Source: a virus. From it: a DNA stretch of 64,000 nucleotides. Every line of letters begins with the position of its first letter. Positions within the stretch are counted from its first letter, which is position 1. Positions 36,943-47,146 of the stretch are shown here, in pieces. Position numbers and translations under genes: made by a program. Where the stretch lies: positions 74,661 through 138,660 of the IMG/VR virus record IMGVR_UViG_3300047382_000480. One strand, given 5' to 3'. Below the pieces are notes generated by a model, which was given only the letters and a program-made list of their open reading frames with translations, did no database searches and was not told the DNA's origin.

Positions 36943-38373
36943 ATGGCAGAAGAAATTAGACCAAACCTGAACAAATCCCGTGGGGATGTCGTTATCGGTT
37001 TTCCAGACCTTCTGAAAGGTAACGCTGGAAACTCCGCTACATCTGATCCAATCACAATGAAAAGGGCTGAAGAAGGTCAGTCTTTTGGCGGTTCTGGAAG
37101 TGGCGGTGGCGGTGGCATGTCTAATAACGTCACACCAATACTTGGTGATCTTCAAGCTGCATCCGAACTCTCTATGGAAGAGTTGGCAAAACAAACAGAT
37201 ATCTTAGAAGGAATAGAAAAAAACACTTCTGAAACAACCACTGCTGGCGGTCAAGAAAAGAAATCTTCCGAAGAAGATATAAGAGCAAAACTAGATGAAT
37301 CAAAACCCCTTGACCAAGAACAAGGGAACAAGATAATCGATAAGCTGGCTGAGCTCAATAGCAATAGTAAAGCAACAGCATCTCTGTTGTCAGTTGCTGC
37401 GGCATTTGCAGGAACTCAAGCCGACGAAATCACAGACGCAATTGACAATATGACCACCACACAGAAGGCTGTTGCTGCAGCATTAACTGTTGGTGTTGCA
37501 GGAACTAGTATCGCTGCAAGTAAACTTGTGACCGCTCCATTGAAAAAAATTGTTAGTCCTGACAAAAAGGAAAAACCAAAGCCCAATTCCTCGAAGTCAA
37601 AAAAACCAAAAACTGCTAAACCCAAACCCCCACCATCTCCCGCTAAACCCAAATCAGGAGTCGTTAAACAGGCAGCAAAGACAGGCGGTAAATTGATTGC
37701 TAAGCAGGGAGCAAAGGTGGCAACAATTGCTGCATCTGGTCCAGCAGCACCTATCGTCGCGAGTGTCATGGCTGCAGCAACAGTTTATGAGCTTGGTACA
37801 ATGGCTCTGGAAAAGGCAGGTTATGGGGAAGAAGTCGAAGCATTTGAAACAGGTGCAATGAATCTTGCTGGGATTGAAACAGATGAACAAGAAATTGAAA
37901 AAGATGCAGCCAAAGTTGCATTGAATGAGAAGAAAATGCAGGCTTTGGTCAAGAAAATTGATTCGTCAGACCTCACCGACCAACAAAAAACATTTCAAAA
38001 GGCAGAGTTACAGAAGGCATTGAATAACAGCGGTGACGTAGATACATTCGGAGACAGAAAAGCAAGGATTGCAGATAGAACATTTAAGAGATATGAGAAA
38101 ATGTATGGTGAAGTAGAGATAGAATCACCAATGACACCTCCTCCTCAAAGCTCAAACTCGATTGAATCAGAAACATCACAAGCTAGAGAAGCAGAGTTGT
38201 TGGCGATGATTCCTGATATTCAAATCCCACCGCAAATACCACCAACAGTTAATGTACCAAACCAACCTGCTCCAAATGTTAGTGTGAGCGCAGTTCTTCC
38301 AAGAACAAACTTGCCATCCGAATTGTCTTCATTCGGGAACCAAGCTAGGATTCCTAAACTAGTTGTTTCATAA
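36943..38373 (+). CDS. Putative tape measure / baseplate hub (gp29-like)
   Basis: Position after gp26-gp51; Ala/Gly-rich helical and low-complexity; Pro-rich C-terminus. Confidence 0.6.
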   Translation: MAEEIRPNLNKSRGDVVIGFPDLLKGNAGNSATSDPITMKRAEEGQSFGGSGSGGGGGMSNNVTPILGDLQAASELSMEELAKQTDILEGIEKNTSETTTAGGQEKKSSEEDIRAKLDESKPLDQEQGNKIIDKLAELNSNSKATASLLSVAAAFAGTQADEITDAIDNMTTTQKAVAAALTVGVAGTSIAASKLVTAPLKKIVSPDKKEKPKPNSSKSKKPKTAKPKPPPSPAKPKSGVVKQAAKTGGKLIAKQGAKVATIAASGPAAPIVASVMAAATVYELGTMALEKAGYGEEVEAFETGAMNLAGIETDEQEIEKDAAKVALNEKKMQALVKKIDSSDLTDQQKTFQKAELQKALNNSGDVDTFGDRKARIADRTFKRYEKMYGEVEIESPMTPPPQSSNSIESETSQAREAELLAMIPDIQIPPQIPPTVNVPNQPAPNVSVSAVLPRTNLPSELSSFGNQARIPKLVVS

Positions 38374-38396
38374 AAAAGGGGAGCATTGCGCTCCCC
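38372..38396 (-). terminator. Rho-independent terminator
   Basis: Minus strand GGGGAGC-GCAAT-GCTCCCC followed by T6. Confidence 0.85.
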
Positions 38397-38403
38397 AGTA
38401 CCA

Positions 38404-38565
38404 CTAAGAACTAAACTCTACGCCACGATAAGTGTGTAAACTTTCTTTCTTTTCTTGCTTCGGCAATTTTTCGTAAAAGGCTCCTCTATAAGTTTTTCTA
38501 GAGTTCTTTTTTACTTTTGCAGATTTTACTAATTGGCTTGCGCCACGATACATAAACGTGTTCAT
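38404..38565 (-). CDS. 53-aa basic peptide with three YRG motifs (DUF4278-like)
   Basis: MNTFMYRGASQLVKSAKVKKNSRKTYRGAFYEKLPKQEKKESLHTYRGVEFSS*; SD AGGGAGA; terminator directly downstream. Below the ORF-track cutoff. Confidence 0.8.
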   Translation of the reverse strand: MNTFMYRGASQLVKSAKVKKNSRKTYRGAFYEKLPKQEKKESLHTYRGVEFSS

Positions 38566-38568
38566 AAC

Positions 38569-38640
38569 ACTTCTCCCTATACAAGGATTGAAGTAGTCTT
38601 TTAACGCATGAACAAATGCGAGTCGATAAAGATGACTAAT
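38569..38640 (-). ncRNA. Candidate structured cis-regulatory leader (riboswitch-like)
   Basis: TAGTC/GACTA closing stem, CGCAT/ATGCG hairpin, alternative AGTC/GACT pairing, and an SD-sequestering hairpin. Pairings found by eye. Confidence 0.45.
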
Positions 38641-38657
38641 CTATTCTATTTAGTAAT

Positions 38658-38682
38658 AAAAAAGGGACTCCGAAGAGTCCCT
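38658..38682 (-). terminator. Rho-independent terminator with cUUCGg tetraloop after gp32
   Basis: Minus strand AGGGACTC-TTCG-GAGTCCCT followed by a T-tract. Confidence 0.92.
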
Positions 38683-38762
38683 ATAAACTTGCAACGAGTA
38701 CTCTTGTTAAATTTTGTCGTTGAGTTTTACCAAGTTTCTAGCCAAGAGGAGCTAGATTCCTG

Positions 38763-39671
38763 TTAATCGTCTTCAGCCAACTTAGCGAAGTATGATAGTG
38801 TATCATCTTCATCATCGTCATTAGACGCAACTGATACCTCTGGTTTTGAATCAACAAAAATTTGATCTTCGACATCACCAGTTTGTTCGGCAACTTTCTC
38901 AGCTGTGGTTACTTTAGCACCACCAGTAAGAACCATTTCTAGTTTTTGCTTCAACTCATCATAAGACTTGAAGTTCTTTGGATCAACAATTTCAGCTAGA
39001 GAAATTTGTTTCGCCCAAATGGCTTCTATTTCTGAATCTTCGGAAGCGATAGGAGTTGGGGTAGTTTCAAACTCAGACTTGTCATAGTTACGATAACCAT
39101 CAACTTGACGAGCCTTCAGTTTAAAGTTTACACCTTCCCAAAAATCAAAAGGATTAACTGGTGTTTCGTCTTCGAACTGTGGTTGCATAACGTCTTTGAT
39201 TTTGTCAAAGATTTTCTTACCAAATTTGTAAAGCATAACCTGCCCCTCGTTTTGAGGATTAGCAGGATCCTTCACAACAAGAACATTAGCATAATAAGCA
39301 AGTCGACGTTTTTGTTTTCGGGCAAGATCTTTATTCGCCTCAACACCACTATTCCAAAGTTCGCTGTTCAATTCAGAAACAGGGTCTTGTTGGTTTAGAG
39401 TAGTGAGGGAGTTTTCAATATACCACTTACCAGTTGGACCTTGGAACCCATGATTAAACATACGAACCCATGGAAGTTCCTCGCCTTGAGGGGAAGGCAA
39501 AAAACGAAGAACAGCATAACCATTACCAGCGGAATCTACTGAGAGTTTCCACTCATTGCTGTCATCTTTTTTATAGTTGGTTTGTGGTGCATCAATTTTT
39601 TCGACTTCTTTCATTAGATTATCGAAAGAGCCTCTTGCTTTACGCAAGTCAGATAGGGAATTAAACGACAT
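38763..39671 (-). CDS. gp32: Single-stranded DNA-binding protein gp32
   Basis: GNGYAVLRFLP, HGFQGPTGKWYIENSLTTL, FGKKIFDKI, NPFDFWEG, YRNYDKSEF, acidic tail LSYFAKLAEDD. Confidence 0.97.
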   Translation of the reverse strand: MSFNSLSDLRKARGSFDNLMKEVEKIDAPQTNYKKDDSNEWKLSVDSAGNGYAVLRFLPSPQGEELPWVRMFNHGFQGPTGKWYIENSLTTLNQQDPVSELNSELWNSGVEANKDLARKQKRRLAYYANVLVVKDPANPQNEGQVMLYKFGKKIFDKIKDVMQPQFEDETPVNPFDFWEGVNFKLKARQVDGYRNYDKSEFETTPTPIASEDSEIEAIWAKQISLAEIVDPKNFKSYDELKQKLEMVLTGGAKVTTAEKVAEQTGDVEDQIFVDSKPEVSVASNDDDEDDTLSYFAKLAEDD

Positions 39672-46326: not shown

Positions 46327-47146
46327 ATCCCCTCCGCATAATCTCGTCCTCCAATAAACTAGAAATATGAATATGCCCTTGATTAGAAGGATGACCGCAA
46401 GGTGTGATCAATCCCTCTGCAAATCCAGGAATTTTATATCTGTTAAAATATTCATTAGAATAAATTGGTTGTAATTCATCTTCGGATAAAGATGGTTCTT
46501 GTTCTCTAACCAGATATTCCATTAGTGTTCTATTTCCCTTTGGTTTAACCATCAAGTCCCAATCAACAATATCCGCAAGATACTTTTTTGACTCTGGGAT
46601 AATCATAGATCTAAACTCTTCTCTTCCAATCCTCAAGTCGAACGCAGAAACAAGAAGCAGTTTAGCATTATTTACTTTACACCAATTTTGTACCTCGGCA
46701 ATGTTTAATATGCAATCTACTGCCTCTTGTTGCCAACTATTCCCAAACTCAGCATATCCTTGCCAAAGTTTATTGCCACTAAGATCTGGAAATACTGGTT
46801 GGAAATGATGATCGACCAATTCTCCTTTAGGTTGTAAAAAATCAAATCTAGATAAACCAGACAAACAAAAAACAACAATTTTTTCTGACGTTGAATCTAG
46901 CTGGTTCATATAAAGTTCTTTCGCAGCAGACCGATTCCCTCTTCCTTTAGAACCAAAATTCAAAGGTATGTAACCAATTCTATCCGCAAGGTTTGTAACC
47001 CAACTATGATCGCTTTCTACTCGGTCAATCATCGCTATTGGTGCTCTTTTATATACTCCGTCTCCGTATCTCGCGTGAAACTTTCTGGGCACTGACCCCT
47101 GTCCACTAGTGAAACTACAACCAATTCCAATCAAATACTTACTCAT
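46307..47146 (-). CDS. SGNH/GDSL hydrolase-like protein
   Basis: GCSFTSGQG, NFGSKGRGN, GHPSNQGH. Confidence 0.75.
   Translation of the reverse strand: MSKYLIGIGCSFTSGQGSVPRKFHARYGDGVYKRAPIAMIDRVESDHSWVTNLADRIGYIPLNFGSKGRGNRSAAKELYMNQLDSTSEKIVVFCLSGLSRFDFLQPKGELVDHHFQPVFPDLSGNKLWQGYAEFGNSWQQEAVDCILNIAEVQNWCKVNNAKLLLVSAFDLRIGREEFRSMIIPESKKYLADIVDWDLMVKPKGNRTLMEYLVREQEPSLSEDELQPIYSNEYFNRYKIPGFAEGLITPCGHPSNQGHIHISSLLEDEIMRRGYVTQGK

Follow-up and report, generated by a model that had tools for sequence, protein, structure and literature searches.

A structured leader RNA before triple-YRG peptide genes of T4-like marine phages and SAR92-type bacteria, a candidate sensor of nitrogen status

In cyanobacteria, genes of the DUF4278 family (IF17 and IF17-like) lie behind glutamine-I or glutamine-II riboswitches, as a section of PMC6212724 sets out; an initial annotation of the DNA studied here had stated this link correctly. 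The same section (Klaehn et al., PMC6212724) describes short picocyanobacterial DUF4278 proteins that lack the C-terminal residues of IF17 needed for interaction with glutamine synthetase. For glutamine-II (RF01704, the Downstream-peptide motif of marine picocyanobacteria), the structural part of PMC6698751 reports a pseudoknot helix 5'-CGUUC/GAACG-3', a CGC linking strand and a long-range C:G pair, near-invariant nucleotides that cluster in one short helix and in a strand lying in its groove, and the behaviour of an ON switch. Glutamine-I (the glnA RNA, RF01739), which precedes gifB/IF17 and YRG peptides, is built on a three-way junction with an E-loop (CGUUCA...GGAAGUAGG...GAAGGAACGC), and is common in Melnitz-like marine myophages according to a portion of PMC9004378. 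Here we describe a leader RNA and the triple-YRG peptide gene that follows it on the minus strand of a 64,000-nucleotide (nt) stretch of the viral record IMGVR_UViG_3300047382_000480. This whole stretch is called the window, and coordinates refer to it.

Conservation and folding of the leader

The RNA is very probably a conserved structured translational leader. The initial annotation, made from the letters of the window, had suggested a riboswitch-like structured leader, and a conserved structured RNA is borne out among relatives, in whose leaders a helix burying the Shine-Dalgarno (SD) sequence (P3) and a 5' hairpin (P1) covary. The annotation had also proposed a self-contained unit that runs from promoter to terminator; its box, leader, triple-YRG open reading frame (ORF) and two terminators are all located on the minus strand, and the hairpins that it named, AGTC/GACT, CGCAT/ATGCG and one that buries the SD, are all present at the leader. 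The box is likewise there, one base away from the 38648-38655 first assigned to it. The features are as follows.

39671..38763, minus strand: gene of a gp32-type single-stranded DNA-binding protein (302-amino-acid (aa) ORF), given as context; the unit begins after it
38682..38663 (scan match; feature 38658..38682), minus strand: intrinsic terminator of the gp32 transcript, an 8-base-pair (bp) stem with a T-run
38654..38647, minus strand: late-promoter-like box ACTAAATA, a degenerate TATAAATA with 2 mismatches
Between the box and the ATG at 38565, minus strand: leader of about 75 nt
38621..38637, minus strand: hairpin P1, with AGTC at 38637-38634, a 9-nt loop and GACT at 38624-38621; abuts the core
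38605..38620, minus strand: hairpin P2, with CGCAT at 38620-38616, loop TTGTTC and ATGCG at 38609-38605
38604-38596, minus strand: A-rich tail TTAAAAGAC (UYAAAAGAC), putative third strand and putative pseudoknot partner of the P2 loop
38595-38568, minus strand: helix P3, TACTTC-AA-TCCTT-GTAT-AGGGA-GAAGTG, with the anti-SD strand TACTTC..TCCTT opposite the SD strand AGGGA GAAGTG
ATG 38565 to 38404, minus strand: ORF of the YRG peptide, 53 aa, three YRG motifs, net charge about +9
38396..38378 (scan match; feature 38372..38396 including the T-run), minus strand: intrinsic terminator of the unit

Relatives were retrieved with the peptide, without regard to the leader, from 18 viral contigs and 58 metagenome contigs. 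Where at least 100 nt lay upstream of the ORF, the core CGCAT-N5/6-ATGCG-TYAAAAGAC (P2 and the tail) was found in 17 of 17 viral and 51 of 52 metagenome loci, even in a group whose peptides are 43-49% identical to that of the window. It is kept in at least five phage lineages with differing loop length and sequence. Seventy distinct leaders, taken from 24 nt before the core to the ATG, were compared after duplicates, rows with N, rows with too short an upstream sequence and rows without SD, ATG and peptide had been left out; the helices were tested jointly in a model-based alignment of 74 matches (73 distinct rows). The core of 24-25 nt is invariant while, in the same bacterial sequences, the adjacent ORF varies at 57 of 60 third codon positions, which argues for strong selection on the core at the nucleotide level. 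The P2 stem is identical in all 73 distinct rows. Among the 70 leaders its loop is 5 or 6 nt long (TGATC in 33, NTGTTC in 26, CGGTTC in 5, AGGTC in 5 and AGGTTC in 1), always with a G at the fourth position from the 3' end and UC at the end, and the tail UYAAAAGAC is fixed except at Y, which is T in 58 and C in 12. Variants of the P2 stem were absent from the viral contigs, which gave only chance matches, and from 202 Porticoccaceae genomes, in which the 23 non-canonical matches are not hairpins (those inspected are complementary at 0-3 of 5 positions). A two-codon mini-ORF, AUG-CGU-UAA (38601-38609 in the window, minus strand), can also be read through the 3' arm of P2 and the tail in 58 of the 70 leaders; the other 12 have C in the tail, which removes the stop of the mini-ORF and lets the frame continue.

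Jointly, P1, P2 and P3 are paired in 87.4% of the cells of the 73 distinct rows, with a covariation score of 0.252 against 0.135 for shuffles (none of 500 reaches 0.252) and at most 0.079 for slid partners; a weakness of the case is that the sequences are related, so that shuffle statistics overstate significance and more weight belongs to the slid controls and to the count of independent arm types. P3 changes on both sides in 6 of its 9 pairs, with 83.9% of cells paired in the same rows. Its outer pair occurs as U-A, U-G and C-G, its loop or insert ranges from 4 to about 60 nt and varies freely in sequence, and it belongs to the minimum-free-energy fold of the window leader. The joint alignment sets the phage-type P1 one column out of register, and P1 was therefore re-tested in three ways. 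All five pairs change on both sides among phage-type leaders alone (86% of cells paired), and three of five do so among bacterial-type leaders alone (96%). In an alignment-free test, a helix of at least 4 bp abuts the core in 69 of 70 leaders, in 19 arm combinations, against 32% of shuffles, and one of at least 5 bp in 56 of 70 against 12%. The G-U wobbles in P1 and P3 indicate that the constraint acts on the minus-strand RNA. The comparison shows a covarying helix that sequesters the SD, directly 3' of the invariant hairpin and tail.

A leader of this kind could also do without sensing. It would then be a constitutive structured element in which P3 tunes translation as a thermometer, stability element or standby site, and the core would be conserved for folding or stability. 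We regard this as improbable. Occlusion of the SD by P3 is the sole functional feature with direct support, and the folding energy of the window leader is ordinary, both of which such an explanation accommodates; but it accounts neither for 24-25 invariant nt outside P3, across phages and bacteria with peptides 43-49% identical, nor for the replacement of a glutamine riboswitch described below.

The mutually exclusive pairing in the initial annotation has fared less well. The distal TAGTC/GACTA pairing is present in the window, yet it is not conserved among relatives: its central pair is disrupted in 15 of the 29 distinct leaders of phage type, a full match to the tail is possible for only 8 of 70 arms, and bacterial-type arms match at most 3 of 4 bases. 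The distal pairing is not selected: the tail is fixed while the P1 arms drift from complementarity to it. Two other candidate pairings were rejected as well. Pairing of the P2 loop with the start codon (TGTTCAT with ATGAACA) is available to phage-type leaders, whose loop UGUUC could pair with GAACA after the start codon, but is not kept by the bacterial type (UGAUC versus AUGAAAAAC). Pairing of the P1 loop with the tail (UUUAA with UUAAA) is impossible for loops such as CGCGAAAAA and CACUUCAGC, and, by eye, the U/C exchange in the tail has no matching change in the partner.

The leader RNA is previously uncatalogued. When it was searched against Rfam 15, as the initial annotation had suggested, it matched no family, neither glutamine-I nor glutamine-II: there was no match at E <= 10 in the local region (38000-39000), no match above gathering thresholds at the leader in a scan of the whole window, and none at E <= 1 to the leader in 8 bacterial loci. 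The RF01704 model (gathering cut-off 33 bits) gave no match at E <= 10 in 38000-39000 and none in the whole 138.7-kb phage genome, and does recover a true case in the Porticoccaceae genome G065 at 57.3 bits. RF01739 (35 bits) had no gathering match in the window, and its best match in the 138.7-kb genome, at 11.1 bits, lies elsewhere than the leader. A GAACG or AACGG strand is absent from the consensus of the 70 leaders, which lacks the CGUUC/GAACG helix of glutamine-II. In the full-text literature, outside subscription papers and supplementary tables, the papers found on DUF4278 are all cyanobacterial by title and abstract, those listed that name a glutamine riboswitch together with PII and a T-loop are general ones, and no paper joins Porticoccaceae with a riboswitch, again outside subscription papers and supplements.

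The new RNA shares with glutamine-II its place as a short 5' leader before a small basic peptide of YRG/DUF4278 type, control at translation, and a compact architecture with the invariant nucleotides in a short helix and a strand; it differs in having neither the CGUUC/GAACG pseudoknot helix nor the other conserved nucleotides, and in belonging to Gammaproteobacteria and their phages, not cyanobacteria. Glutamine-I has in common with it the peptide family, the bacterial family, the phage group (Melnitz) and, in Melnitz, a similar SD and start context downstream. In place of the three-way junction and E-loop, however, the new RNA consists of two adjacent hairpins, an A-rich tail and the SD helix, and true RF01739 examples from Porticoccaceae look different from it.

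The peptide and the carriers of the unit

The triple-YRG peptide postulated in the initial annotation is real, and to judge from its codons and profile matches it is a protein under selection and a divergent DUF4278 member. Variable sites are distributed 34/27/57 of 60 over the three codon positions in 28 distinct coding sequences, and at the three YRG motifs the codons change but stay synonymous, with CGN/AGA exchanges among the changes. The window peptide matches part of the DUF4278 domain (PF14105) at E = 4.7e-4 and 20.9 bits, for a gathering cut-off of 25.3 bits. Among 9 triple-YRG relatives led by the same RNA, all have DUF4278 as their best and practically sole family, matched over the full length, and 2 of the 9 exceed the cut-off, with 32.8 and 26.1 bits.

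The YRG peptide family also resembles the T-loop of the signalling protein PII. PII proteins fetched from the host genomes have the T-loop GHTELYRGAEYVVDFLPK, and a Porticoccaceae YRG peptide led by glutamine-I matches it at 11 of 14 positions (E = 2e-5; middle repeat LYRGAEYQVDQLSK). The match of the window peptide is weak (6 of 10, E = 0.15); its family shares YRG(A/S)xY..LPK. The resemblance gives partial support to a mimicry of the PII T-loop by such peptides, and leaves glutamine synthetase, the target named in the initial annotation, as one of several candidates.

The initial annotation had placed the peptide in a cyanobacterial frame. The cellular relatives of the element are instead Porticoccaceae (SAR92-type) and other marine Gammaproteobacteria, which, on the distribution of the core, are its cellular home. 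A search with the RNA in one genome per species for 185,579 prokaryote species gave 39 loci, of which 16 are chance matches with neither hairpin context nor peptide. The 23 true loci belong to Porticoccaceae, the SAR92 clade, Cellvibrionales and unclassified Gammaproteobacteria. Every one precedes a YRG ORF, triple-YRG and of 57-65 aa in 22 and cut by the contig end in the 23rd. The canonical core is present in 20 of 202 Porticoccaceae genomes, and a covariance model (R1) detects a single copy in each of 11 of the 151 Porticoccaceae genomes sampled and one in the phage genome. A peptide-pattern scan of prokaryote genomes gave no match, the phage GenBank collection contained no DNA or protein match to the unit, and a deep HMMER search with the window peptide, a query too short to reach further, returned 3 representatives only at E <= 1e-3. 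In viral contigs the core pattern also stands before 19-20-aa single-YRG peptides (L146, L151) and before 31-33-aa basic peptides without YRG (L143-L150). In one viral contig (L011/L018) an A-run some 40 nt after the start lacks one base, which breaks the peptide frame in this copy only; this may be a sequencing error or a pseudogene.

By tblastn, the window gp32 shares 57.1% identity with its counterpart in Methylophilales phage Melnitz and 56.8% with the single-stranded DNA-binding proteins of the Prochlorococcus phages P-SSM2/P-SSM5. From the module alone, we infer a Porticoccaceae-like bacterium as the phage host. A hairpin equivalent to the gp32 terminator is present in most relatives, and the terminator of the unit is kept in relatives with compensatory differences. 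No sigma-70-type promoter is predicted within 38300-38800. A plus-strand 52-aa ORF (38608..38766) spans the gp32 terminator and sequence unconserved in relatives, and was given no weight. Contigs from RNA libraries of two studies match exactly across 38454-38618 and 38458-38608 at a depth of 2.4-4, with DNA carry-over possible; such contigs cannot show transcript ends, and gaps in their coverage carry no meaning.

A T4-type late promoter is a TATAAATA box about 6-9 nt upstream of the transcript start, with no -35 element. The late promoter suggested in the initial annotation finds backing in relatives, as the exact TATAAATA occurs in 17 of 39 phage-type upstream regions and a one-mismatch version in 12 more, mostly at the same distance from the core. 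The window box ACTAAATA agrees with TATAAATA at 6 of 8 positions and ends 26 nt before the core, where relatives carry their exact or one-mismatch boxes. In one phage lineage (L077, L103, L105, L112, L113), the TATAAATA box and P1 are separated by an additional hairpin (GAATAGTTTACTATTC) and some 25 nt, which would extend the 5' end of the transcript. The P1 loop TGCTTTA is frequent in both phage-type and bacterial-type leaders (e.g. L022, L023, L153), although the window P1 loop (ATCTTTATC) is without it. It is identical to the T4 MotA-box motif as quoted in one part of PMC9004378; bacterial leaders have it too, and the identity may be coincidence.

Exchange with glutamine riboswitches and the divergent neighbour gene

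The leaders of YRG genes differ between sister genomes. A survey of 151 Porticoccaceae genomes gave the following arrangements.

G024, G039, G050 and G060: tandem RF01739 pairs before a 59-60-aa triple-YRG peptide (L206-L209)
G122: a single RF01739 before a non-YRG 66-aa ORF (MGRFTELLKNF...; L205)
G065: RF01704 before a 33-aa basic peptide
11 genomes including G122: the new RNA before a triple-YRG peptide

The four genomes with tandem RF01739 have neither the canonical new core nor the neighbour protein introduced below. By its position before the YRG gene, the new RNA stands where sister genomes place a glutamine-I riboswitch. SAR92-type bacteria share the leader RNA with T4-like marine phages, and it takes the place of a glutamine riboswitch.

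On the phage side, a glutamine-I riboswitch was confirmed in Melnitz (MZ577097.1, about 46398-46564; L258:1501-1667). It is followed by a similar SD and start context and a 32-aa basic ORF (MTLYQQWCYLKAQKEYRRRQK...), with a longer in-frame ORF of 45 aa from an upstream ATG; the published account, in the part that treats this riboswitch, ties it to ssrA. Covariance model R1 has no match in Melnitz. A resemblance of the Melnitz peptide after the riboswitch to the L143/L144 peptides was seen by eye only and was dropped, as BLASTP finds no alignment; synteny after gp32 was also rejected, an unrelated 61-aa ORF occupying that position in Melnitz.

The bacterial loci have a further constant partner. 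In all 23 genome loci and all 19 bacterial-type metagenome loci, a divergent ORF of about 186 aa has its start 49-56 bp away from the core, while the outer context differs (formamidase and ureDAB in L153; NUDIX, COX15 or GST elsewhere). The protein is all-helical (example L153:4683-5243, minus strand; equivalents in L152-L190). It belongs to no family found by Pfam, NCBIfam or PDB sequence searches, and the ESM Atlas gives unnamed clusters only. Its best Foldseek E-value is 0.28, and a wide VIA-align search returns generic helical hairpins with Z <= 7.5. It is absent from all phage loci and from the genome of the window phage. In one Porticoccaceae lineage the module lies between a formamidase gene and ureD-ureA-ureB (L153:5782-7281 and L153:3013-4248), and the antisense 5' ureB small RNA family of Rfam matches at 87 bits over ureB in L153; this nitrogen-scavenging context is not common to all lineages.

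The neighbour could be a trans-acting sensor, a partner of the peptide or a co-inherited gene. As a sensor it would make the leader an RNA operator, in which the invariant P2 and tail are bound by a host protein, most obviously the neighbour itself; binding would stabilise or open the SD-burying helix, and the phage copy would borrow the host protein. We consider this, the main rival to direct sensing of a metabolite, rather unlikely, though a good deal speaks for it. Of the 151 genomes, the 11 with the RNA are exactly those with the neighbour, which keeps its divergent position in every one of the loci just counted despite their differing surroundings and is missing from the four genomes with glutamine-I before YRG; the P2 stem, moreover, is invariant and without covariation. 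An invariant hairpin beside an occluded SD, with a linked protein gene in bacteria, also recalls autoregulatory protein-binding leaders such as ribosomal-protein operators. In contrast to those systems, however, the searches above assign the linked protein to no known family or fold that binds RNA or DNA, and it is missing from the phages that keep the RNA: no phage locus encodes it, nor does the window genome, although at least five phage lineages retain the core. The co-occurrence, for its part, fits a peptide partner or a co-inherited gene equally well.

The sigma-70 promoter of the bacterial peptide (TTGACC-N17-TATATT) overlaps the start of the neighbour, whose own promoter would accordingly lie inside the leader DNA. 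A further candidate is a DNA element, with the palindrome CGCAT-N5/6-ATGCG as the operator of a dimeric factor or as part of the neighbour promoter, and the RNA hairpin incidental. The inverted repeat is perfect and never covaries, and the bacterial copy sits in a compact bidirectional control region where the -35 box of the peptide promoter overlaps the neighbour start. Nevertheless, such an explanation is highly improbable. The half-sites are spaced by 5 or 6 with an asymmetrically conserved centre, and next to them P1 and P3 covary in the manner of RNA helices, G-U pairs included. Of the two flanks, the tail on the 3' side is invariant and the 5' side variable, which together with the 5-or-6-nt loop fits an RNA better than a symmetric DNA operator. 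Phages keep the palindrome behind a T4-type late promoter and without the neighbour gene, which argues that the core is not conserved merely as a neighbour promoter.

A possible sensor of nitrogen status

Further riboswitch classes for one ligand have come to light through just such a pattern, in which the genes of a single family stand behind alternative leaders in sister genomes. It is mainly because the YRG family has such alternative leaders that we favour a nitrogen or glutamine signal here. We see somewhat less than an even chance that the leader is a new riboswitch-like RNA that directly senses a small molecule of nitrogen status, with L-glutamine as the most likely putative ligand. More tentative still, and rather doubtful in its full form, is the proposal that P1, P2 and the tail (about 45-50 nt) make up a third, structurally unrelated glutamine riboswitch class ('glutamine-III') built on a tiny H-type pseudoknot or triplex, used by streamlined SAR92/Porticoccaceae and captured by T4-like phages to time a PII-T-loop-like YRG peptide to the nitrogen status of the host. 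In a bolder variant, the RNA, the peptide and the 186-aa neighbour would form a new three-part nitrogen-signalling module.

Small riboswitches of the H-type pseudoknot kind, such as preQ1-I, are the comparison class for the geometry of P2 and its tail, and pseudoknot or triplex folds of this sort are familiar from small riboswitches. The new RNA resembles them in its 5-bp stem, in a short loop with a 3' portion available for pairing with the tail, in an A-rich strand (about 6 nt) that could lie along the stem, and in the adjoining expression platform; it differs in that it matches no such class in Rfam, in that its pseudoknot is a prediction, and in its association with nitrogen-type peptides. 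In the proposed fold, the G.UC of the P2 loop would pair with the GAC of the tail, and the UYAAAA run would cross the 5-bp P2 stem to give an H-type pseudoknot of 24-25 nt with triplex character. The pocket of glutamine-II, as far as the structural part of PMC6698751 describes it, is built in a similar way from different sequences. The pocket formed by P2 and the tail would bind a nitrogen-status metabolite, most likely L-glutamine. Because the GAC of the tail abuts the anti-SD strand, binding of the ligand (or of a protein) could make P3 more or less stable and thereby set translation of the peptide. As to the direction, ON at high glutamine, by analogy with the ON switch glutamine-II, would be the simplest guess. 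In the phage, the late-type promoter would have the peptide made late in infection, scaled to the nitrogen state of the host.

Several observations weigh against direct sensing of glutamine. The invariant P2 stem, the G..UC of the loop and the tail lend no covariation support to the hairpin or to the proposed pseudoknot, and a stem without variation is just as typical where a protein binds as it is in a ligand pocket. The window leader by itself folds no better than shuffled sequences (z = -0.52). The core has no recognisable likeness to the binding core of glutamine-I or glutamine-II, with no CGUUC/GAACG helix. The exact co-occurrence with the neighbour hints at a protein partner, and genome G122 holds both RNAs, RF01739 before its non-YRG ORF and the new RNA before YRG. 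Finally, a single peptide locus, L136, has no leader; its upstream sequence is unrelated and contains no SD, and this contig (1-400) may be chimeric or rearranged.

Should the RNA indeed respond to glutamine or to some other nitrogen signal, a new riboswitch class would have been found in the classic way, through one gene family with different leaders, and a ligand hypothesis and a minimal construct for it are already defined. The YRG peptide system extends beyond cyanobacteria to abundant marine heterotrophs and to their phages, in which it stands behind late-type promoters, and this suggests that phages read or manipulate the nitrogen signalling of the host late in infection. In view of their resemblance to the PII T-loop, the peptides may act on the PII signalling network and not on glutamine synthetase, and the analysis singles out an uncharacterised and tightly linked protein of about 186 aa.

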